Shown here piece after piece: positions 6,012 through 55,555 of a DNA stretch of 64,000 nucleotides (positions are counted from its first letter, which is position 1; every line of letters starts with the position of its first letter). A program made the translations under genes and the position numbers. The DNA comes from TPA_inf: Saccharomyces (taxonomy: Eukaryota): contig BK006941.2 of NCBI GenBank assembly GCA_000146045.2, forward strand, positions 768,001 to 832,000, written 5' to 3'. The notes below the pieces were generated by a model, which made no database searches, was not told the DNA's origin, and saw only the letters and a program-made list of their open reading frames with translations.

Positions 6012-6163
6012 CTTGAATAGAATTCAACTATCGTTTATCGATTCTATTTTGAGGATTCCTATACCCTCGAGGAGAACTTCTAGTATATTCTATATACCTA
6101 ATATTACTACTGTTATTAACAATGGAATCCCAACAATTATCTCAAAATTCACCAATATCTCAA
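6012..6163 (+). repeat. Solo Ty1/Ty2 delta LTR remnant with an internal deletion: the first ~25 bp of the LTR fused to its 3' third.
   Basis: 'GAATAGAATTCAACTATCGTTTATCG' resembles the delta start 'GGAATAAAAATCCACTATCGTCTATC'. It is followed by 'GATTCTATTTTGAGGATTCCTATACCCTCGAGGAGAACTTCTAGTATA...AATGGAATCCCAACAATTATCTCAAAATTCACCAATATCTCA', matching the 3' part of delta. It lies 186 bp upstream of the tRNA. Confidence 0.7.
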
Positions 6164-10599: not shown

Positions 10600-11470
10600 A
10601 ACTTATTGATTCCTTTTTGTGGATTCCTATACCCTACAAGAACACTGTTGGATATAGACATTATATGCAATATTAATTATGCGACTGATAGGCTTCGTAA
10701 TTCCTGCTTGAGTAAAGACAAGAATTTTCATTTCTCATTAACTGTTTTTATTTATAACCTAGGAAAAAAAGGAGCTGAAAATTTGTTGGAATAAAAATCC
10801 ACTATCTTATATCAACTAGTATTCCTAATGTCAGTATATTGTCATATAAGGCGTTAGATGGTGACATAAGGTATGAAAAGTTGCCATCGAAGTTAGAGGA
10901 AGCTGAAATGCAAGCATTGATGTAATAGGATCAATGAATATTAACATATAAAACGATGATAATAATATTTATAGAATTGTGTAGAATTACAGATTCCCTT
11001 TTATGGATTCCTAAATCCTTGAGGAGAACTTCTAGTATATCTACATACCTAATATTATAGCCTTAATCACAATGGAATCCCAACAATTACATCAGAACCC
11101 ACACTCTCTTCAATTATTATGTAGAAATTTCGATTCTATTTTGAGGATTCCTATACCCTCGAGTAGAAATTCTAGTATATCCTACATACCTAACATTATT
11201 GCTTTATCAATAATGGAATCCCAACAATTATTGTTACAGGCTACGATATTGCGTATAGAAAAAATGTTGAAAGTTCTTCTGCAAGATACAGGAATCCAAA
11301 GGGAATCAATATATCTACCTAATAGTATTATTATTTCTTTTCCATTTTATATGTTTCACTATCCTACTATTTCATCGATCCTCTTATTTAAGCTTTTATT
11401 AAACCTAATGACTGTTCTATAACTTTTATGTCCTCTTTTTACATCATAAATGATAATTAATATACTAGTG
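10600..11470. repeat. Cluster of at least four Ty1/Ty2 delta LTR fragments in mixed orientation: a near-complete delta at 10778..11112 plus internally deleted and inverted fragments.
   Basis: 10778 'TGTTGGAATAAAAATCCACTATC...AATGGAATCCCAACAATTACATCAGAACCCACACTCTCTTCA' ends at 11112. A second partial delta follows at 11113..11225 ('GATTCTATTTTGAGGATTCCTATACCCTCGAGTAGAAATTCTAGTATATCC...AATGGAATCCCAACAATTA'). A reverse-orientation fragment lies at about 11290..11440 ('GGAATCCAAAGGGAATC...TTTTATATGTTTCACTATCCTACTATTTCATCG'). A further fragment lies at about 10600..10700. Confidence 0.8.
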
Positions 11471-25053: not shown

Positions 25054-25420
25054 GTTTATATTTATCTATCTGTTAGGACTTGTGAAACAATGCTATTTTC
25101 CTGTGCACTATGGACTATGGCTTTGCTTTTACATTTTATGCCTCCAATTTTTCACAATCCTGTCCGACGCTCAGATATTGGTGTGGAAGTAGAGCTAACT
25201 CTCTATCTCAGAAAAAAGGTTAGAGCAAGGCAGATCTTTTGCAATAAGAATCAGTTACCATCGATCGATTTGAATTCATATTACTAGTACTTTGCAATAC
25301 ACTGTGTAAGAAGATGTCATAAAGATTGAGAAACGGTCATCAAACTTAATGTAAGCAGAGACACGAGGATTGATGATGAAGTAAGATAATGTGCGACAAG
25401 GAAGAAAAAATAATAGCATT

Positions 25421-25560
25421 ATGTAGAGATATCGATTCCCTTTTGTGGGCGCTATGTTCTGGAGGAGAGTTTCTAGTATATTCCTTATCCATAATGTTAT
25501 ATGTGATCTTTATCAACAGTGGAATCCCAACAATAATGCAATTATTCACCCATTTTTCAC
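25421..25560 (+). repeat. Partial delta LTR (3' portion), diverged.
   Basis: 'GATTCCCTTTTGTGGGCGCTATGTTCTGGAGGAGAGTTTCTAGTATATTCC...CAGTGGAATCCCAACAATAATGCAATTATTCACCCATTTTTCACA' is collinear with the Ty1 delta 3' half. About 860 bp upstream of tRNA-Ala(UGC). Confidence 0.6.
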
Positions 25561-42505: not shown

Positions 42506-43737
42506 ACGCCTGATGCGAGCTATACGTTTTGTGCTCACCGTGCACATATGGTGGCTACTTTTCTACTCAAACACGTTTGAAAAACGGCATACGATTAGCT
42601 TACAGATTGAACTCAAAGAAGTCGCAATGGGAGGTGCAGAAGATGACGTGTTACTTAGTTTATAATACAATGTGTTTTATATATCGATTCTTCGTTTATG
42701 CATTTCTGGACGATTGCTTTTCACTGTAAATACGCACTAATATTCATGAATATAAAAAAATGTAACATCATATCTCAATGTTCTTCTCCGTCAGTCAGAT
42801 AGTGGCAAGGCTGTGATAGGACATTCTTAGAACGCCAAGAAAATCAAAAATTTGAACGGTATCTAAATTCATTTGTCGAACCCTTGAAGAAACTCACAGA
42901 GCGGGGTATCTACTATTTTGTTTTCGTTCTTTTGAATCTCCGCTACGTCACATTTTCTACAACCCTCAGGTCCCCTCACCACGAAAATCCAAGATTTGTA
43001 AAATATGAGCCGCGTATTTCTGCAATGGTAGAAACGATAATGTACCTATCGTACAACGATACATTATTTTAGTGCATTATAAGCCGCTTGATTCATGTTG
43101 ATAATTAGCGGCTAAATTGTAGTAGTCATTCAAAATAATCGTACACCTTCATATAGTTATGAAAGGGGTATAAAAGATGAACGCTCGTTGGCCATGTCAA
43201 AGGTGCCTTAAAAATAACAATGCTTGCGGTAGTACGTGTGCAAAGTGTATATTCGCATGAGAGGTGATCGGAAATTGCTTTATCGCCCCACTAATTCTGA
43301 TTCTTATTCAAATATTTATGTCACGTAGCGAGCTTACTTATCCATATATCAAAGGAAATCCAGATATAAACTCAAACTAATTCTTCTGTTTCCACGTAAC
43401 TAGCATTCACATTGTAGTTTTCTAGATTACAGCAATTTATATATATTGTTGGAATAAAAATCAACTATCATCTACTAACTAGTATTTACGTTACTAGTAT
43501 ATTATCATATACGGTGTTAGAAGATGACGCAAATGATGAGAAATAGTCATCTAAATTAGTGGAAGCTGAAACGCAAGGATTGATAATGTAATAGGATCAA
43601 TGAATATTAACATATAAAATGATGATAATAATATTTATAGAATTGTGTAGAATTGCAGATTCCCTTTTATGGATTCCTAAATCCTCGAGGAGAACTTCTA
43701 GTATATCTACATACCTAATATTATTGCCTTATCAAAA

Positions 43738-45054
43738 ATGGAATCCCAACAATTACATCAAAATCCACATTCTCTACATGGTAGCGCCTATGCTTCGGTT
43801 ACTTCTAAGGAAGTCCCATCAAATCAAGATCCGTTAGCCGTTTCAGCTTCCAATTTACCGGAATTTGATAGAGATTCCACTAAGGTTAATTCTCAACAAG
43901 AGACAACACCTGGGACATCAGCTGTTCCAGAGAACCATCATCATGTCTCTCCTCAACCTGCTTCAGTACCACCTCCACAGAATGGACAGTACCAACAGCA
44001 CGGCATGATGACCCCAAACAAAGCTATGGCCTCTAACTGGGCACATTACCAACAACCGTCTATGATGACGTGTTCACATTATCAAACGTCACCTGCGTAT
44101 TATCAACCGGACCCACACTATCCGTTGCCACAGTATATCCCACCACTGAGTACTTCCTCACCTGATCCAATCGATTCACAGAATCAACACTCTGAAGTAC
44201 CTCAAGCTGAGACAAAGGTGAGAAATAACGTCTTACCACCACACACTTTAACATCAGAAGAAAACTTTTCTACATGGGTTAAATTTTACATCAGATTTTT
44301 GAAGAACTCTAATCTCGGTGACATCATTCCAAATGACCAGGGTGAAATCAAAAGTCAAATGACTTATGAAGAACATGCGTATATATACAATACCTTCCAA
44401 GCATTTGCCCCATTTCATTTATTGCCAACATGGGTAAAACAAATTTTAGAAATTAATTATGCTGACATCCTTACAGTCCTTTGTAAAAGTGTGTCCAAAA
44501 TGCAAACTAACAATCAAGAATTAAAGGATTGGATAGCTCTTGCCAACCTTGAGTACGACGGAAGTACATCTGCTGATACATTTGAAATTACAGTCAGTAC
44601 GATCATTCAGAGGCTAAAAGAAAACAATATCAATGTTAGCGACAGATTGGCCTGTCAACTAATACTTAAAGGTCTATCCGGTGACTTCAAATACCTACGT
44701 AATCAATATCGTACCAAAACGAACATGAAACTTTCCCAATTATTCGCTGAAATTCAGTTAATATATGACGAAAATAAAATCATGAATCTAAATAAACCGT
44801 CCCAATACAAACAACACAGCGAATACAAAAATGTTTCTCGCACATCTCCAAACACGACTAACACAAAGGTTACAACTCGTAATTATCATAGAACAAATAG
44901 TTCAAAACCAAGAGCAGCAAAAGCTCACAATATTGCTACATCTAGTAAATTCTCAAGGGTGAACAATGATCACATTAATGAATCAACCGTTTCATCACAA
45001 TACTTAAGCGATGACAACGAACTTAGTCTTAGGCCAGCAACAGAAAGAATCTAA
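43738..45054 (+). CDS. TY2A: Ty2 TYA (Gag), 438 aa.
   Basis: The ATG lies inside the 5' LTR as expected. The Ty2-specific Gag sequence is 438 aa, versus 440 aa for Ty1. Confidence 0.88.
45028..45034 (+). promoter_or_regulatory. Ty +1 programmed ribosomal frameshift heptamer CTT-AGG-C (TYA into TYB).
   Basis: CTTAGGC with CTT in the TYA frame, 20 nt before the TYA stop. TYB continues in the +1 frame. Confidence 0.85.
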
Positions 45055-48000
45055 GCCAACACACACAATAGACTCGAATGACGAACTACCTGATCACCTT
45101 CTTATTGATTCAGGAGCTTCGCAAACGCTTGTCAGATCAGCCCATTATTTACACCATGCAACACCCAATTCTGAAATAAACATAGTCGATGCTCAAAAAC
45201 AAGACATTCCTATAAATGCCATTGGTAATCTTCACTTCAACTTTCAGAACGGCACCAAAACATCAATAAAAGCACTACACACACCAAACATAGCCTATGA
45301 TCTATTAAGTTTGAGTGAGCTGGCTAATCAAAATATTACTGCCTGCTTTACCAGAAACACTTTAGAAAGATCGGATGGTACAGTACTAGCTCCCATAGTC
45401 AAACATGGAGACTTTTACTGGTTATCTAAAAAATACCTAATTCCTTCGCACATTTCAAAGCTAACAATAAACAACGTCAACAAAAGCAAAAGCGTAAATA
45501 AATATCCATATCCGTTAATACATCGAATGCTTGGACATGCTAACTTCCGAAGTATTCAGAAGTCTCTTAAGAAGAATGCAGTTACATATTTGAAGGAATC
45601 GGATATTGAATGGTCTAACGCTAGCACATATCAATGTCCTGACTGTCTAATCGGCAAAAGCACGAAACATAGACATGTCAAAGGATCACGACTAAAGTAC
45701 CAAGAATCATATGAGCCTTTTCAGTACTTGCACACCGATATATTTGGTCCTGTACATCACTTACCGAAAAGTGCACCTTCTTACTTTATATCGTTTACAG
45801 ATGAGAAAACCAGATTCCAATGGGTGTACCCATTACACGACCGTCGTGAAGAATCTATCCTCAATGTTTTTACATCGATATTAGCATTTATTAAGAACCA
45901 ATTCAATGCTCGCGTTCTAGTTATCCAGATGGATCGTGGCTCCGAGTACACTAACAAAACTCTTCATAAGTTCTTTACGAACAGAGGTATTACTGCATGC
46001 TATACAACCACGGCAGATTCTAGAGCACACGGTGTCGCTGAACGATTAAATCGTACTTTATTAAACGATTGTCGCACACTGCTTCATTGCAGTGGTCTAC
46101 CAAATCATCTATGGTTCTCAGCAGTCGAATTTTCTACTATAATCAGAAATTCATTAGTCTCACCAAAAAACGATAAATCTGCAAGACAACATGCAGGTTT
46201 AGCTGGACTGGACATTACTACTATACTACCTTTCGGTCAACCGGTTATAGTTAACAACCATAATCCCGACTCGAAAATACATCCTCGTGGCATTCCAGGT
46301 TACGCCTTACATCCGTCACGAAACTCTTATGGCTATATTATCTATCTTCCATCATTAAAAAAGACAGTAGATACTACCAATTACGTTATATTACAAGACA
46401 AGCAATCCAAATTGGACCAATTCAATTATGATACACTCACCTTTGATGATGATCTCAATCGTTTAACAGCCCATAACCAATCTTTTATTGAACAAAATGA
46501 AACGGAGCAGTCATATGATCAAAATACAGAATCTGATCATGACTATCAATCGGAGATTGAAATAAACTCTGATCCTCTAGTGAACGACTTCTCGTCCCAA
46601 TCAATAAACCCTTTACAATTAGACAAGGAACCAGTCCAAAAAGTACGTGCACCAAAAGAAGTTGATGCCGACATATCTGAATACAATATTCTTCCATCTA
46701 CTATACGATCTCGTACACCCCATATCATTAATAAAGAGAGTACCGAAATGGGTGGTACCGTTGAATCAGATACTACTTCACCTAGACACTCGTCTACCTT
46801 CACTGCACGAAACCAAAACCGACCTGGTAGTACCAATGAGATGATTGATTTGACCTCACAGGATAGAGTTAATTATGGACTTGAAAACATCAAAACTACA
46901 CGTTTGGGTGGTACGGAGGAACCATATATTCAACGAAATAGTGATACAAATATCAAATACAGGACTACAAATAGTACGCCCTCAATAGATGACCGTTCGT
47001 CCAACAGTGAATCCACTACTCCCATCATCTCCATAGAAACAAAGGCTGTATGTGATAATACACCCTCCATTGATACGGATCCGCCAGAATATCGATCTTC
47101 TGACCATGCGACTCCTAATATAATGCCTGACAAATCCTCAAAAAATGTTACGGCTGATTCTATTCTTGACGACCTCCCACTTCCTGACTTAACCCATAAA
47201 TCTCCTACGGACACTTCTGATGTTTCAAAAGATATTCCACACATACACTCTCGTCAGACTAATTCCAGTTTGGGTGGTATGGATGATTCTAATGTTCTGA
47301 CTACTACCAAAAGTAAGAAAAGATCATTAGAAGATAATGAAACTGAAATTGAGGTATCCCGAGACACATGGAATAATAAGAATATGAGAAGTCTGGAACC
47401 ACCAAGATCGAAGAAACGCATAAATTTAATTGCAGCAATAAAAGGAGTGAAATCGATCAAACCAGTTCGAACGACCTTAAGATATGATGAAGCAATTACA
47501 TATAATAAAGACAACAAAGAAAAAGACAGATATGTTGAAGCTTATCATAAAGAAATTAGCCAACTATTGAAAATGAACACTTGGGATACAAACAAATATT
47601 ATGATAGAAATGACATAGATCCTAAAAAAGTAATAAACTCAATGTTTATATTTAACAAGAAACGTGATGGTACACACAAAGCTAGATTTGTTGCAAGAGG
47701 CGACATTCAACACCCCGATACATATGATTCTGATATGCAATCCAATACCGTACATCACTATGCACTGATGACGTCACTGTCAATCGCATTAGACAACGAC
47801 TATTATATCACACAGCTGGACATATCCTCTGCTTACTTATATGCTGATATCAAAGAAGAATTATACATAAGACCTCCACCACATTTAGGTTTGAATGATA
47901 AATTACTACGTTTGAGAAAATCACTCTATGGTTTGAAACAAAGTGGTGCAAACTGGTATGAAACCATTAAATCATATTTAATAAATTGTTGCGACATGCA

Positions 48001-49051
48001 AGAAGTTCGCGGATGGTCATGCGTATTTAAGAATAGTCAAGTAACAATTTGCTTATTCGTTGATGATATGATATTATTCAGCAAAGACTTAAATGCAAAT
48101 AAGAAAATCATAACAACACTCAAGAAACAATACGATACAAAGATAATAAATCTGGGTGAAAGTGATAACGAAATTCAGTACGACATACTTGGATTAGAGA
48201 TCAAATATCAAAGAAGCAAGTACATGAAATTAGGTATGGAAAAATCCTTGACAGAAAAATTACCCAAACTAAACGTACCTTTGAACCCAAAAGGAAAGAA
48301 ACTTAGAGCTCCAGGTCAACCAGGTCATTATATAGACCAGGATGAACTAGAAATAGATGAAGATGAATACAAAGAGAAAGTACATGAAATGCAAAAGTTG
48401 ATTGGTCTAGCTTCATATGTTGGATATAAATTTAGATTTGACTTACTATACTACATCAACACACTTGCTCAACATATACTATTCCCCTCTAGGCAAGTTT
48501 TAGACATGACATATGAGTTAATACAATTCATGTGGGACACTAGAGATAAACAATTAATATGGCACAAAAACAAACCTACCAAGCCAGATAATAAACTAGT
48601 CGCAATAAGCGATGCTTCATATGGTAACCAACCATATTACAAGTCACAAATTGGTAACATTTTCCTACTCAACGGAAAAGTGATTGGAGGAAAGTCGACA
48701 AAGGCTTCGTTAACATGCACTTCAACTACAGAAGCAGAAATACACGCAGTCAGTGAAGCTATTCCGCTATTGAATAACCTCAGTCACCTTGTGCAAGAAC
48801 TTAACAAGAAACCAATTATTAAAGGCTTACTTACTGATAGTAGATCAACGATCAGTATAATTAAGTCTACAAATGAAGAGAAATTTAGAAACAGATTTTT
48901 TGGCACAAAGGCAATGAGACTTAGAGATGAAGTATCAGGTAATAATTTATACGTATACTACATCGAGACCAAGAAGAACATTGCTGATGTGATGACAAAA
49001 CCTCTTCCGATAAAAACATTTAAACTATTAACTAACAAATGGATTCATTAG
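45032..49051 (+). CDS. TY2B: Ty2 TYB (Pol: protease, integrase, reverse transcriptase/RNase H), expressed as a Gag-Pol fusion of 431+1339 = 1770 aa by +1 frameshift.
   Basis: Open from the GGC codon at 45032 to the stop at 49051 (1339 codons). Aspartic protease 'LIDSGAS'. Integrase HHCC/DDE ('[14 protein letters not shown]', 'HTDIFGP'). RT '[11 protein letters not shown]'. Confidence 0.88.
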
Positions 49052-49067
49052 ATCTATTACATTATGG

Positions 49068-49392
49068 GTGGTATGTTGGAATAAAAATCAACTATCATCT
49101 ACTAACTAGTATTTACGTTACTAGTATATTATCATATACGGTGTTAGAAGATGACGCAAATGATGAGAAATAGTCATCTAAATTAGTGGAAGCTGAAACG
49201 CAAGGATTGATAATGTAATAGGATCAATGAATATTAACATATAAAATGATGATAATAATATTTATAGAATTGTGTAGAATTGCAGATTCCCTTTTATGGA
49301 TTCCTAAATCCTCGAGGAGAACTTCTAGTATATCTACATACCTAATATTATTGCCTTATTAAAAATGGAATCCCAACAATTACATAAAAATC
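49068..49392 (+). repeat. Ty2 3' delta LTR, truncated 18 bp before its end by the Ty1 insertion (remainder at 55307..55324).
   Basis: TGTTGGAATAAAAATCAACTATCATC...AATGGAATCCCAACAATTACATAAAAATC, then an abrupt switch to the inverted Ty1 LTR terminus TGAGATATATGTGGG. Confidence 0.85.
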
Positions 49393-49746
49393 TGAGATAT
49401 ATGTGGGTAATTAGATAATTGTTGGGATTCCATTGTTGATAAAGGCTATAATATTAGGTATACAGAATATACTAGAAGTTCTCCTCGAGGATATAGGAAT
49501 CCTCAAAATGGAATCTATATTTCTACATACTAATATTACGATTATTCCTCATTCCGTTTTATATGTTTCATTATCCTATTACATTATCAATCCTTGCACT
49601 TCAGCTTCCTCTAACTTCGATGACAGCTTCTCATAACTTATGTCATCATCTTAACACCGTATATGATAATATATTGATAATATAACTATTAGTTGATAGA
49701 CGATAGTGGATTTTTATTCCAACATACCACCCATAATGTAATAGAT

Positions 49747-52700
49747 CTAATGAATCCATTTGTTTGTTAATAGTTTGAATGTTTTTATCGGAAGAGGTTT
49801 GGTCATTACGTCTGCAATATTCTTTTTGGTTTCGATATAGCATACGTGCAGATGATTTCCTGATACTTCATCTCTCAGTCTCATTGCTTTAGTACCAAAA
49901 AATCTGTTTCTAAATTTCTCTTCATTATTGGATATAATTATACTGATTGTAGATTTACTGTCGGTTAGTAATCCTTTGGTAATTGGTTTCTTGTCGAGTT
50001 CTTGTATCAGGTAACTTAGATTATTTAATAATGGGACAGATTCACTTATTGCGTGTATTTCTGCTTCCGTAGTTGAAGTACATGTTAATGAAGCCTTGGT
50101 GGACTTTCCTCCAATTACTTTTCCATTAAGTAAATATATGTTGCCAATTTGTGATTTATAATACGGTTGGTTACCATACGAGGCATCGCTTATAACAACT
50201 AATTTATTTGTTGGCTTAACAGGTTTGCTTTTGTGCCATATTAATTGCTTATCTCTCGTATTCCATATGAACTGTATCAATTCATATGTCATATCTAACA
50301 CTTGCTTGGACGGAAATAGTATATGTTGTGCAAGTGTGTTGATGTAGTATAATAGGTCAAATCTAAATTTATATCCAACATATGATGCTAGACCTATCAG
50401 CTTTTGCATTTCATGTACCTTCATTTTGTAATCATCTTCTTCTAGCTCTAGTTCTTGCTGGTTTATATAGAGACCTGGTTGGCCTGGGGCACCAAGTTTT
50501 CTTCCGTTTGGATTCAAAGGTACGTTTAATTTGGGTATTTTCTCAGTTAATGAGTTTTCCATACCTAATTTCATGTATTTACCTCTTTGATATTTGATTT
50601 CTAAGCCAAGGATGTCGTATTGAATTTCATCATCGCTTTCACCTAGATTTATAATCTTGGTATCGTATTGCATCTTGAGTTTTGCTATAATTCTTTTATT
50701 CGAATTTAAGTCCTTGCTGAACAATATCATATCATCAACGAATAAGCAAATTGTTACTTGACTATTCTTAAATACGCATGACCATCCACGAACTTCTTCC
50801 ATACCACACTGTTTTATCAGGTATGATTTGATAGTTTCGTACCAGTTCGCTCCACTTTGTTTCAATCCATAAAGTGATTTCTTCAAACGTATCAACTTAT
50901 CATTCATTCCTAAATGTGGTGGAGGTCTTATGTATAATTCTTCTTTGATGTCTGCATACAAATATGCCGAAGATATGTCTAATTGTGTAATATAGTAGTT
51001 ATTGTCTAATGCAAGTGACAGGGATGTCATTAATGCATAGTGATGTACGGTATTGGATTGCATGCCTGAGTCGTAAGTGTCAGGATGCTGAATATCACCT
51101 CTTGCAACAAATCTAGCTTTATGAGTACCGTCACGTTTCCTGTTGAAGATAAACATTGAATTTATTACTCTTTTAGGGTCTATTTCTTTTCTGTCATAAT
51201 ATTTGTCAGTGTCCCAAGTATTCATTTTCAATAGTTGGTTGACTTCTTTGTGGTATGCTTCGATATATTTTTCCTTTTCTTTAATATCTTTATTATAGGT
51301 GATTGCCTCATCGTATCTTAAGGTTGTCCGTATTGGTTTGATTGATTTTACTGCTTTTACAGCTGCAATCAGGTGAATTCGTTTCTTCGATCTCGGAGGT
51401 TCTAAACTACGCATATTCTTAGTATTCCATGTGTCTCGTGATACCTTAATTTCAGTTTCATTATCTTCTAATGATCTTTTCTTACTGTTGATAGTAGTAT
51501 AGGCATTAGAGTCACCAATACCACCCAAACTGGAATTAGTTTGACGAGAATTGATCGGTGGAAGTTCTTTAAAGGAGTCTGATAATTCGGTAGGAGGTTC
51601 TGGAGGCAGATCGGGAAGTGGAAGATCAGCAATTATAGATTCCTCTGTATTCTCCTTAGGACAGGTATCTGACGTTTTGATAGGAACGACGTGGTGTAGT
51701 GAATTACTTTCTGATGAGGAAGTATCGATCGAAGGTGAACGGTGTATAATCCTTTTCTCAGTCTCCTGTTCGCTTGTCTGCGGAACAGTTTTATTATTGG
51801 TACCACCCGTACTGGATATTGGTACGTTTGTATGATTAGTCTCATTGTCACTGTACGAGTCTGAGTGTCTGAAATCTTTAGATTTACTGGCGTACGACGA
51901 CTCATGTGTGTTAGATTGGGACATGGGAGCAAGTAAAGGAACATTTAATTTATGCATACCACCCGAACCGGTACTCTCGATATTGGAAATTTGGGGGGTG
52001 CTAGATCTCTTCTTTGATGGAAGAATATTAGATTCAGATATGTTGGGGTCAACTTCTCTGGGTGCGCGAATATTGGTTTTAGAAACACGTTTCGAATCTT
52101 CAGTATGAGTTGACGGAGGTGTGGAATCGGTTGGACTCACAGCTTTTGAAAGGACATTTCTCGGTTGCTCAGGATGTAGTTCAATGTCGGATTGGAAGTC
52201 ATGGTCAGATTCTATGTTAAGATCATTGGATTCTTGGATCTCATTTGACGCAATGAACGAATGATATGAAGCAGTTAAACGGTTTAAGTCTTCATCGAAA
52301 GTGAGTGCGTCGTAATTGAATTGATCTAATCTGGATTCCTTGCCCTGAAGAATAACATAGTTAGTTGTATCTACTGTCTTCTTTAAGGATGGAAGATAGA
52401 TGATATATCCATAAGAGTTTCGAGACGGATGTAGAGCGTAGCCTGGGATGCCACGAGGATGTATTTTGGAGTTAGGGTTGTGATCATTGACGATAACAGG
52501 TTGACCGAAAGGTAACAAAGTACTGATATCAAGTCCTGCCAAGCCAGCATGTTGTCTTGCAGATTTTTTGCTTTTAGGTGAAGCTAGTGAATTTCTCACA
52601 ATAGTAGAAAATTCGATTGCAGAGAACCATAAATGGTTCGGTAAACCACTACATTGCAGTTGAGTACGGCAGTCATCTAATAAGGTACGGTTCAGCCGTT

Positions 52701-53709
52701 CAGCGACTCCATGTGCTCGGGAATCCGCTGTGGTTGTATAGCATGGAGTTATACCATTTTTTTCAAGGAATTTATGGAGAGTTCTGTTAGTATACTCAGA
52801 ACCACGGTCCATTTGTATAACTAAGACACTGGCCTGAAACTGGTTTTTAATAAAAGCTAGTATCGTAGTAAAAACATCGAGGATAGAGTCCTCGCGACGG
52901 TCGTGTAATGGATAAACCCAACGGAATTTTGTTGTCTCATCAGTAAATGAGATGAAATAGGATGGTGCACTTTTTGGTAGGTTGTGAACTGGACCAAATA
53001 TGTCAGTATGTAGGTATTGAAAGGGTTCGTATGAATTTTGGTATTTTAGTCGTGAACCTTTGATATGTCTGTGTTTGGTGCTTTTGCCGATTAAACAATC
53101 AGGACATTGATAGTCAATAGCACTAGACCAGTCGACATCTGATTCGTTAAAATACGTGATGGTGTTATTTTTAAGTGAGTATCGAATTGTCTGTGCATTG
53201 GCATGCGCAAGCATTCGATGAATGAAAGGATAAGGATATTTGCGTGTACTTTCACTTGTATGGACATTATTGATGGTGGGTACGGAGATATTTGATGGAA
53301 GCAAGTACTTTTTAGATACCCAGTAAAAGTCTCCATATTTCACGATAGGTGCAAGTACAGTGCCGTCAGACCGTTCTAAGACGTTTTTGGTAAAGCATGC
53401 TGTGATATCTACTGCAGCCAATTCATTCAAACTGAGTAAGTCATAGGCTATGTTAGGAGTGTGCAATACCTTTATTGATGTTTTGGTGTTGTCCTGGAAG
53501 TGAAATTGTAGGTCACCAATAGCGTTAATTGGTATATTTCTTTTTTGAGCATCAACTACGTTTATGTCAGGATTAGATGATGCTGAGTGTATGTGATGAG
53601 CAGATCTTATAAGGGTTCGTGATGCTCCTGAATCGAGAAGGAGGTGTCCAGGGAGTTCATCATCAGAATGATTAGTATGATTTACTGTAGATTCAGTAAG
53701 TTTCTGGCC
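49747..53709 (-). CDS. TY1B: Ty1 TYB (Pol), 1320 codons, fused to TYA by +1 frameshift at CTTAGGC (53713..53707 on the minus strand). Gag-Pol is 435+1320 = 1755 aa.
   Basis: Checked by hand: no stop between the track's TTG 'start' at 53466 and the GGC codon at 53709..53707. Protease, integrase and RT motifs are collinear with Ty2 TYB. Confidence 0.85.
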
Positions 53710-55015
53710 TAAGATGAAGGTCGTGCTTATTGTTCAATTGAATCGGTTCAGTAGTTGATTTACTGATGGAATCGTTGTCCGTGCTGGGAGAGTTATTAGA
53801 TGTGGATACATTGTGAGCCCTGGCTGTTTTCGATTTCGAATTATTTGTTTTTTGAGGATTCCGAGCTATAACTTTGGGTTTGGTTGTATTCGTATAGCTG
53901 CGAGAATCATTCTTCTCATCACTCGGATTTCTCCTGTAATTAGGTTTGCTGTTTCTCGATCCCTGTTGTTCTTCATAAATAGCATGGATATCTAAGAACA
54001 GTTCAGCGACTGTCATATTTAGATGTCGATGACGTGTGTAGCGTAAAAATTTATATTCGCCAGATAGACCTCTCATAATTAATTGGCATGCGACCTTGTT
54101 ATTGATATGAATGCCATTATTGTTCAGTCTGTCGATAATGTTTGTGACTTTTGTTTCAAATGCATCTGCAGGTGTACTGCCATTATATTGCAAATTTGCC
54201 AGGGTCACAATGTCGTTTGCCTCTTGGGTATCAGATTGCATTTTTTCAATACTTTTGGAAAGAATTTTCATGATATCCGTATAATCAACGGATAGGATGT
54301 CTTTGACCCAGGTAGGTAGGAATTGAGAGGGAGCAAATATTTGAAAAGTGTTATACAAGAAGGTGAGTTCATCATCAGTGATCTGACGTACGGGTTTTCC
54401 GTTTACTGTCGGAATAATACCACCGAGATTCGAGTTTTGTAAAAATTTGATGTATGTTTTAACCCAATTTGGAAAGTCATTAGGTGAGGTTAACATTGGT
54501 GGTGGTCTGACATATTTTTTAGTGGATGTCATATCAGAGTCCGCTGAGGATGAATCAGTAAATGTATTACCTGACTCAGGTGATGGAGTGCTCAGAGGCG
54601 TTCCAACTGATGATGGATACTGCGGAAACTGTGATTGTGGCCCAGGTGGAAAGTACATAGGCGACATTTGATAAGGTGTATACGGAATCATAGATGGGTG
54701 TCCGTAAAATGACCAACCAGATGGATTGGCTTGGTTTTGGGTCATCATGCACTGCTGTGGGTACGGCCCATTCTGTGGAGGTGGTACTGAAGCAGGTTGA
54801 GGAGAGGCATGATGGGGGTTCTCTGGAACAGCTGATGAAGCAGGTGTTGTTGTCTGTTGAGAGTTAGCCTTAGTGGAAGCCTTATCATATTCTTGAATTT
54901 TGGAAGCTGAAACGTCTAACGGATCTTGATTTGTGTGGACTTCCTTAGAAGTAACCGAAGCACAGGCGCTACCATGAGATATATGTGGGTAATTAGATAA
55001 TTGTTGGGATTCCAT
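53693..55015 (-). CDS. TY1A: Ty1 TYA (Gag), 440 aa.
   Basis: ATG at 55015..55013 inside the 5' LTR. Canonical Ty1 Gag sequence of 440 aa. Confidence 0.9.
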
Positions 55016-55481
55016 TGTTGATAAAGGCTATAATATTAGGTATACAGAATATACTAGAAGTTCTCCTCGAGGATATAGGAATCCTCAAAATGGAATCTAT
55101 ATTTCTACATACTAATATTACGATTATTCCTCATTCCGTTTTATATGTTTCATTATCCTATTACATTATCAATCCTTGCACTTCAGCTTCCTCTAACTTC
55201 GATGACAGCTTCTCATAACTTATGTCATCATCTTAACACCGTATATGATAATATATTGATAATATAACTATTAGTTGATAGACGATAGTGGATTTTTATT
55301 CCAACAAAATCCACATTCTCTTCATATATACATATATTGGTTGTTGTTACTACTTTAGCTTTTTTCCTCTGTTCGTTTCAAGATCTAGCTTGCAATTATC
55401 CCTCTAGGTAATAACCAGCATAGTTGTCGTCGTTTCATGTGACCTATTCCCCTTTAATTGGATCAATCTTCCAATAAGAGT

Positions 55482-55555
55482 GGTTTCGTGGTCTAGTCGG
55501 TTATGGCATCTGCTTAACACGCAGAACGTCCCCAGTTCGATCCTGGGCGAAATCA
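55482..55555 (+). tRNA. tRNA-Val (anticodon AAC).
   Basis: GGTTTCGTGGTCTAGTCGGTTATGGCATCTGCTTAACACGCAGAACGTCCCCAGTTCGATCCTGGGCGAAATCA. Anticodon loop CTTAACA. T5 terminator directly downstream. About 157 bp downstream of the Ty2 LTR end. Confidence 0.9.

Follow-up and report, generated by a model that had tools for sequence, protein, structure and literature searches.

The locus and its two retrotransposons

Exact protein matches place the window (the whole stretch of 64,000 nucleotides that was analysed) on chromosome VII of Saccharomyces cerevisiae S288C, and set the elements described here between RTS3 and TIF4631. The products of RTS3, TIF4631, GTR2, CHO2 and MTR3, and the Gag proteins of a Ty2 and a Ty1 element, are all identical to their S288C counterparts. 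The locus is the YGRWTy2-2/YGRCTy1-3 pair at about 818 kb; nothing in the window differs from the S288C pair, the flanking proteins and both Gag-Pol polyproteins being identical. To the right of the pair lies a tRNA-Val(AAC) gene, which the preliminary description had also placed at the site. It is detected by ARAGORN and by a local Rfam scan, although it was missed, because of speed filters, when the whole window was searched with Rfam at the gathering threshold. The Ty2 target site is located 153-157 bp upstream of this gene. Further delta remnants occur upstream of other tRNAs in the window. Coordinates of the features are listed in Table 1.

The outer element is a Ty2 of 5,959 bp on the forward strand, divided between 43447..49392 and 55312..55324 and flanked on both sides by TATAT. 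Ty2 is a Ty1/copia-type LTR retrotransposon of the Pseudoviridae. In keeping with this family, the element displays direct LTRs of ~332 bp with TG...CA ends, a 5-bp target-site duplication, a primer-binding site, a polypurine tract and Ty2-type Gag and Gag-Pol, the latter read through the frameshift heptamer CTTAGGC. The Pol domains are in the order protease, integrase, reverse transcriptase (Pfam: Pol_BBD, rve, RVT_2), and the Gag-Pol product of 1770 aa is identical to S288C Ty2-F/NP_058163.1. The inner element is a Ty1 of 5,914 bp on the reverse strand (49393..55306), bounded on both sides by AAATC. Its inverted terminus, TGAGATATATGTGGG, begins at 49393, and its far end, ...TTATTCCAACA, stops at 55306. 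It likewise contains LTRs, a primer-binding site, a polypurine tract, a 5-bp duplication and Gag and Gag-Pol of the Ty1 type; read through CTTAGGC, the latter comprises 1755 aa and is identical to UniProt Q12316, ‘Transposon Ty1-GR3 Gag-Pol polyprotein’. In both elements the Pfam domains follow the copia order. The preliminary description had assigned the two elements to Ty2 and Ty1, and regarded both as full length with open frames. The identity of the polyproteins to named S288C proteins and the open frames in Table 1 bear out both statements.

Table 1. Features of the nested Ty2/Ty1 pair and the adjacent tRNA gene (positions are those of the window)
Feature	Position	Strand	Remarks
Ty2 target-site duplication, left, TATAT	43442..43446	.	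Single TATAT in empty-site alleles
Ty2 5' LTR (delta)	43447..43778	+	332 bp, TG...CA
Ty2 TYA (Gag)	43738..45054	+	438 aa; Pfam TYA E = 3e-203; identical to S288C Ty2 Gag DAA08254.1
Ty2 primer-binding site	43779..43788	+	TGGTAGCGCC (initiator tRNA-Met); adjoins 5' LTR; element position 333
Ty2 TYB (Pol) open frame	45008..49051	+	1347 codons; Pfam Pol_BBD, gag_pre-integrs, rve, RVT_2
Ty2 +1 frameshift heptamer	45028..45034	+	CTTAGGC; element position 1582
Ty2 polypurine tract	49066..49073	+	GGGTGGTA; adjoins 3' LTR
Ty2 3' LTR, proximal part	49074..49392	+	319 bp; last bases are the left AAATC (49388..49392)
Ty1 3' LTR	49393..49724	-	332 bp
Ty1 polypurine tract	49725..49732	-
Ty1 TYB (Pol) open frame	49747..53733	-	1328 codons; Pfam rve, RVT_2
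Ty1 TYA (Gag)	53693..55015	-	440 aa; Pfam TYA E = 9.6e-235; identical to DAA08256.1
Ty1 +1 frameshift heptamer	53707..53713	-	CTTAGGC; element position 1594
Ty1 primer-binding site	54965..54974	-
Ty1 5' LTR	54975..55306	-	332 bp
Ty1 target-site duplication, right, AAATC	55307..55311	.	Ty2 LTR positions 315-319
Ty2 3' LTR, detached final part	55312..55324	+	13 bp, CACATTCTCTTCA
Ty2 target-site duplication, right, TATAT	55325..55329	.
tRNA-Val(AAC) gene	55482..55555	+	ARAGORN; Rfam tRNA, 53.1 bits in local scan

The nested junction

The preliminary description had proposed that the Ty1 is nested, in inverted orientation, in the 3' LTR of the Ty2. This proved nearly base-exact, with every junction, and both copies of AAATC and of TATAT, where they had been placed. 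The Ty1 interrupts the 3' LTR 13 bp before the end of the LTR; a switch ahead of the expected end was thus correctly recognized, but the 18-bp tail originally counted includes the duplicated pentamer. At the right end of the Ty1 the sequence reads ...CAACA-AAATCCACATTCTCTTCA-TATAT. The 15-mer AAATCCACATTCTCT occurs twice in the window, in the 5' LTR and in the detached tail, compared with 0.02 occurrences expected by chance.

Removal of the Ty1 together with one copy of AAATC rebuilds a 3' LTR of 332 bp (49074..49392 joined to 55312..55324) that matches the 5' LTR over its whole length, with 329/332 positions identical, three mismatches and no gaps. The collinearity anticipated for the two LTRs therefore holds, although two of their boundaries required correction: the 3' LTR starts at 49074 and not at 49068, because 49066..49073 is the polypurine tract, and the 5' LTR ends at 43778 rather than 43780. 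AAATC is present as a single copy in uninterrupted Ty2-type LTRs, namely the 5' LTR of the window, the solo LTR of one other strain (L012) and the 3' LTR shared by two others (L014/L015; see below). AAATC thus represents a genuine duplication, as had been suggested, and not a canonical repeat of the delta sequence. Once the insert is removed the host Ty2 is both collinear and complete, and the bases duplicated at the junctions are single in intact copies.

The LTRs of the Ty1 (49393..49724 and 54975..55306), previously proposed to match each other as inverted ends, are 100% identical (332/332). The absence of differences between these LTRs, compared with three between those of the Ty2, fits the view that the Ty1 is the younger insertion, although part of the three Ty2 differences could derive from gene conversion instead of age. 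The reverse order, in which the Ty1 arrived first, was rejected, as Ty2 LTR sequence, with the duplicated pentamer, bounds the Ty1 on both sides.

The site in other strains

The equivalent site was compared across 20 loci, from 47 contigs. An empty site, ...GCAATTTATA-TATAT-ACATATATTGG, with one copy of TATAT, is present in 13 other S. cerevisiae assemblies; these calls were made by string check (L001, L002, L004-L010), by sequence (L011) or from the spacing between RTS3 and TIF4631 (L016, L018 and L020). In other strains Ty elements or solo LTRs have inserted independently at least five times, within a stretch of about 70 bp that lies 85-157 bp from tRNA-Val(AAC) on its upstream side. The alleles include solo LTRs in L012 (duplication CAATT) and L017 (duplication CATAT), a full Ty1 in L019 (duplication GTTTC) and two inverted Ty2 elements in L013. 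L014 and L015, which are CEN.PK-like, share the Ty2 of the window, but in them its 3' LTR is unbroken and adjoins sequence from chromosome III (the LEU2-NFS1 segment). L003, a scaffolded assembly, has the same right junction as the window, CAAAATCCACATTCTCTTCA-TATAT, together with part of a Ty1 at the expected offset, and is interrupted across the region by a gap of 8,991 N.

It had been suggested that other strains might retain either the tRNA-Val site free of Ty elements or a site occupied by the Ty2 alone. The former is represented by the 13 empty-site assemblies; none of the 20 loci shows the latter, a Ty2-only allele that retains its native right flank, and we infer this intermediate state. 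Metagenome contigs yielded no match to the intact Ty2 3' LTR end followed by TATAT and the right flank; as the nested right junction was also absent from these contigs, this null result says nothing either way.

Origin of the pair

Only one reading agrees with the evidence, namely that the Ty2 was already in place when the Ty1 was inserted by integrase into the Ty2 3' LTR. It is close to certain, and accounts for two perfect 5-bp duplications, the gap-free rebuilding of the host LTR and the empty-site alleles in other strains. The same observations support the original view that the junctions arose by integration rather than by recombination between elements. Ty elements do recombine, and L014/L015 join the same Ty2 to chromosome III sequence, apparently via Ty2 homology. 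It is nevertheless very improbable that the junctions described here were produced by exchange between Ty elements or LTRs, whether through homologous recombination, ectopic recombination or gene conversion. Recombination does not repeat 5 bp of the host element directly on either side of a complete TG...CA element, and after it the host LTR would not be exactly collinear once the insert is taken out. The two LTRs that meet at the junction are, moreover, inverted, without shared homology. Least credible of all is an assembly artefact in which two Ty copies located elsewhere in the genome were joined as a chimera since, although Ty elements are hard to assemble, as the gap in L003 illustrates, the Ty1 Gag-Pol sequence is unique (UniRef cluster n=1) and assigned to chromosome VII, L003 independently contains the right junction and the Ty1 fragment, and the pair serves as a physical landmark in experimental papers (PMC2908449; bioRxiv 10.1101/2025.05.08.650247).

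The integration reading, extended to both elements, gives a history of two successive integrase-mediated retrotranspositions upstream of one tRNA-Val(AAC) gene, which can be proposed with very high confidence. In the first step the Ty2 integrated in the forward orientation, duplicating TATAT. The Ty1 later entered the Ty2 3' LTR near its end, probably in U5, in the opposite orientation, duplicating AAATC (LTR positions 315-319) at a site that then lay 171-175 bp upstream of the tRNA gene, giving the tail-to-tail pair YGRWTy2-2/YGRCTy1-3. In Ty1 LTRs U3 comprises 240 bp, R 56 bp and U5 38 bp. By these boundaries the break in the 3' LTR would fall within U5, beyond the point where the Ty2 RNA ends, and therefore the Ty2 transcript should be unaffected and the two elements may both have kept the ability to transpose.

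The tRNA-Val(AAC) gene is the Pol III target that draws insertions to the site. The integrase of Ty1 binds subunits of Pol III, and insertions of Ty1 lie in nucleosomal DNA as far as about 1 kb upstream of genes transcribed by Pol III (PMC5911963). The repeated targeting seen here would be explained if Ty1/Ty2 integrase binds subunits of RNA polymerase III and the elements are inserted into the positioned nucleosomes upstream of the tRNA gene. The locus thus resembles other Pol III-targeted clusters of Ty elements and LTRs upstream of tRNA genes, with insertions 85-175 bp from the tRNA and several independent alleles in the population. It differs from them in that such clusters consist mostly of solo LTRs and fragments, whereas both nested partners are full length and intact.

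The inverted repeat and chromosome stability

In a published account the pair is described as the longest inverted repeat of the yeast genome, with a length exceeding 5,900 bp (PMC2908449). The inverted arms are ~73% identical overall, rising to 82-86% in the inner 2.2 kb, and are 71-84% complementary with no spacer. Folded as DNA, the central 681 nt form a single long, imperfect hairpin with an MFE of -206 kcal/mol (z = -35). The locus therefore shares with the inverted-Ty fragile sites of yeast the close apposition of inverted full-length elements capable of intrastrand pairing, although its arms are diverged. Two pairs on chromosome IV, YDRWTy2-3/YDRCTy1-3 (HS4) and YDRWTy2-2/YDRCTy1-2 (HS3), have the same arrangement of a Watson Ty2 and a Crick Ty1, tail to tail and close together, and are proven mitotic recombination hotspots (PMC3616911). 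The likeness is one of architecture. Non-Ty DNA separates the two elements, over 25 bp in HS4 and about 100 bp in HS3, whereas the chromosome VII elements, with the Ty1 inside the Ty2 LTR, have no spacer. In a 2025 preprint, mitotic recombination and loss-of-heterozygosity (LOH) endpoints did not cluster at the chromosome VII pair under normal growth (bioRxiv 10.1101/2025.05.08.650247). FS2 on chromosome III also consists of close inverted full-length Ty elements; however, it comprises two Ty1 elements about 280 bp apart and breaks when DNA polymerase alpha is low, whereas the chromosome VII arms are diverged members of two different families.

It is possible, though unlikely, that the pair is also a structure-forming fragile site, at which a hairpin or cruciform would arise at the spacer-less centre as in HS3/HS4 and FS2. 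The stability of the central hairpin and the lack of a spacer are consistent with this proposal, as is the requirement of HS4 for both arms in its hotspot activity (PMC3616911). The region is, in addition, the commonest endpoint of Chr7R deletions in one assay, being used in 36/43 cases, and a frequent endpoint of non-allelic recombination (bioRxiv 10.1101/2025.05.08.650247). Use as a non-allelic endpoint, however, does not require fragility, since homology to Ty copies elsewhere is enough. Also against the proposal are the divergence of the arms, in which the longest exact run is 65 bp, and the same preprint's finding of unclustered LOH endpoints under normal growth. The earlier suggestion that the arrangement is a substrate for hairpin formation or inversion is tempered by the divergence of the arms and by the distribution of LOH endpoints. 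The 11.9-kb diverged repeat would serve mainly as dispersed homology for non-allelic recombination. A more specific proposal, that the quasi-palindrome is a conditional breakage site (for example, under replication stress) whose central break seeded the LEU2-NFS1 segment to the right of the same Ty2 in L014/L015, is more doubtful still. If true, these strains would provide a natural case of breakage at a palindrome centre repaired from a Ty2 on another chromosome.

Discussion

The Ty1-in-Ty2 arrangement is real and was correctly read in the preliminary description, but it is an ordinary feature that has already been described, a named part of the reference genome that was not recognized as such at first. 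As a discovery it carries little weight: the locus is in the S288C reference annotation and is already a landmark in recombination studies. In the papers covered the pair is named, but the nested junction at AAATC is not set out. The region upstream of the tRNA gene is highly polymorphic, with an empty site, other insertion alleles and a rearranged allele carrying LEU2. The locus provides a clean textbook case of Pol III-directed Ty integration repeated at one site, of the use of target-site duplications to order nested insertions, and of the way in which long inverted repeats, later substrates for chromosome rearrangement, are built up by such insertions.

Architecture of the nested Ty2/Ty1 pair

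The three junction regions were read directly and then aligned. From 49393 the Ty2 3' LTR gives way to TGAGATATATGTGGG..., the inverted terminus of a second delta LTR, and the right end of the inner element, ...TTATTCCAACA, lies at 55306. When the two separated parts of the Ty2 3' LTR (49074..49392 and 55312..55324) are joined they form a 332-bp LTR that, as the preliminary description had predicted, is collinear with the Ty2 5' LTR, displaying no gaps and three mismatches (LTR positions 287, 313 and 330). The 15-mer AAATCCACATTCTCT occurs in the window only at 43761, in the 5' LTR, and at 55307, at the detached tail (chance expectation 0.02). The proposed nested junctions were thus located correctly, three small corrections aside: the Ty2 3' LTR starts at 49074 rather than 49068, the 5' LTR ends at 43778 rather than 43780, and the break in the 3' LTR is 13 bp, not 18 bp, before its end, the longer tail having counted the duplicated pentamer.

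Coordinates of LTRs, target-site duplications, tRNA genes and alleles of other assemblies (L numbers), in window numbering
Feature	Position	Strand	Remarks
Delta fragment	6036-6162		127 bp; upstream of tRNA-Ala (6349)
Solo delta	10784-11112		adjoining direct and inverted fragments up to 11510, just upstream of tRNA-Gly (11616)
Diverged LTR	25239-25544		~69% identity; ~0.9 kb upstream of tRNA-Ala (26417)
TATAT, left copy	43442..43446		left of Ty2 5' LTR
Ty2 5' LTR	43447..43778	+	332 bp, TGTTGG...TCTACA
Ty2 primer-binding site	directly 3' of Ty2 5' LTR	+	TGGTAGCGCC
Ty2 3' LTR, proximal part	49074..49392	+	starts right after polypurine tract GGGTGGTA; ends ...ACATAAAAATC
Ty1 LTRs	49393..49724 and 54975..55306	-	332/332 positions identical
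AAATC, right copy	55307..55311
Detached Ty2 LTR tail	55312..55324	+	CACATTCTCTTCA
TATAT, right copy	55325..55329
tRNA-Val(AAC)	55482..55555
L013, Ty2	55327-31		opposite orientation; duplication TATAC
L013, second inverted Ty2	about 55362-66
L017, solo delta	55331-35	-	duplication CATAT
L019, full Ty1 without Ty2	55375-79	-	duplication GTTTC; LTRs identical to those of the window Ty1
L012, solo Ty2-like delta	55393-97	+	duplication CAATT

Both elements are full length with open Gag and Pol frames, a view upheld by ORF lengths, frameshift sites and Pfam domains. The Ty1 (5,914 bp, - strand) encodes a 440-aa Gag and a Pol open frame of 1328 codons, and the Ty2 (5,959 bp when reconstituted, + strand) a 438-aa Gag and a Pol frame of 1347 codons. 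Each contains one CTTAGGC +1 frameshift heptamer within the Gag/Pol overlap, generating Gag-Pol fusions of 1755 and 1770 aa, respectively; a polypurine tract and a primer-binding site of sequence TGGTAGCGCC are likewise present in both. Pfam identified a TYA domain in both Gag proteins, and both Pol frames show the copia arrangement of protease barrel, integrase core and RVT_2. Exact-sequence look-up matched the Ty1 fusion to UniProt Q12316 ('Transposon Ty1-GR3 Gag-Pol polyprotein'), whose cluster has one member, and the Ty2 fusion to NP_058163.1/DAA08253.1, identical to the protein named Ty2-F. Exact S288C matches also flank the pair: the ORFs to its left are Cho2, Mtr3 and Rts3 (YGR161C), and those to its right are Tif4631 and Gtr2. 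These identities assign the window to S288C chrVII and the pair to the annotated elements YGRWTy2-2 and YGRCTy1-3. The nested pair is real and was interpreted correctly, and is already known.

The Ty2 Gag-Pol (45008-49051) is identical at 1770/1770 residues to the chrVI copy (Ty2-F; DAA08253.1, DAA12437.1), which suggests a very recent relationship between the two copies. Identical or near-identical Ty2 Gag/Pol proteins appear under the names Streptococcus uberis (GAA5351190.1, GAA5349144.1) and Parabacteroides merdae (MTT11453.1), almost certainly through yeast DNA contamination of those assemblies.

Order and mechanism of insertion

As Ty2 LTR sequence bounds the Ty1 on both sides, the Ty2 inserted first. 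This order fits the LTR differences, none in the Ty1 pair, aligned as had been proposed, and three in the Ty2 pair. Both insertions are standard integrase events, with cuts staggered by 5 bp; integration of the Ty1 into the Ty2 LTR, as originally claimed, is supported by the duplicated pentamer and the gap-free LTR reconstitution. The Ty1 LTR comprises U3 (240), R (56) and U5 (38), and the AAATC site, at LTR positions 315-319, presumably falls in U5 of the Ty2 3' LTR. This would be beyond the Ty2 transcript end, and therefore Ty2 RNA should be unaffected by the Ty1 insertion.

The pair as an inverted repeat

The two elements constitute an inverted repeat with zero spacer, listed as the longest in the genome (Strawbridge et al. 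2010, PMC2908449). Arm identity is 73% overall, reaching 82-86% in the inner 2.2 kb (RT/RNase H region and LTRs) and falling to 54-66% across Gag and portions of integrase, with a longest exact run of 65 bp; folding of the central 681 nt gave a long imperfect hairpin. Two Ty2(W)/Ty1(C) pairs on chrIV are mitotic recombination hotspots requiring both arms (St Charles and Petes 2013, PMC3616911). Their layout is analogous, although they have spacers of 25 bp and about 100 bp while the chrVII pair has none. At the chrVII pair 36 of 43 Chr7R deletion endpoints were found, whereas LOH endpoints under normal growth did not cluster there (bioRxiv 10.1101/2025.05.08.650247). Given these endpoint data and the divergence of the arms, the earlier proposal that the locus is a rearrangement substrate is reasonable with respect to dispersed homology, but structure-driven fragility is unproven.

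Alleles in other strains

TIF4631 and RTS3 look-ups yielded 20 loci from other assemblies. The RTS3-TIF4631 spacing is ~2.76 kb in 13 of these, compared with 14.6 kb in the window. Ten of the short-spacing loci were read as the empty site ...GCAATTTATA-TATAT-ACATATATTGG; three (L016, L018 and L020) were scored empty on gene spacing alone. The single TATAT at empty sites proves the outer duplication, which had been claimed for the Ty2. In L003, where the scaffold contains an N gap, the right junction is CAAAATCCACATTCTCTTCA-TATAT, as in the window. A Ty2-only allele with the native right flank was found neither among the 20 loci nor among metagenome contigs, where two scans gave no hit to this allele or to the nested right junction. 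GCA_002571405.2 and GCA_030292175.1 (L014/L015, 1-8000) contain the same Ty2 with the same left junction and an unbroken 3' LTR. To its right, just past the equivalent of window position 49392, come tRNA-Leu, a LEU2-like gene of 364 aa (Iso_dh) and an NFS1-like fragment (Aminotran_5). This gene content matches the LEU2-NFS1 duplication between two Ty elements on CEN.PK113-7D chrVII (PMC5812507), and both assemblies are probably CEN.PK.

The alleles of L012, L013, L017 and L019 are different, independent insertions, all 85-157 bp upstream of tRNA-Val(AAC). This tRNA went unreported in a whole-window Rfam scan at the gathering threshold, and scored 53.1 bits in a local scan against a cut-off of 29; true tRNAs can be lost to the Rfam speed filters when 64 kb are scanned at once. 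With five or more independent insertions of a Ty or solo LTR in other strains within ~70 bp (55325-55400), the stretch upstream of tRNA-Val is a very polymorphic integration hotspot. Such repeated insertion in one short stretch is expected from the established targeting of Ty1 to Pol III genes: its integrase attaches to subunits of RNA polymerase III, and the element enters positioned nucleosomes as far as about 1 kb upstream from these genes (review PMC5911963).
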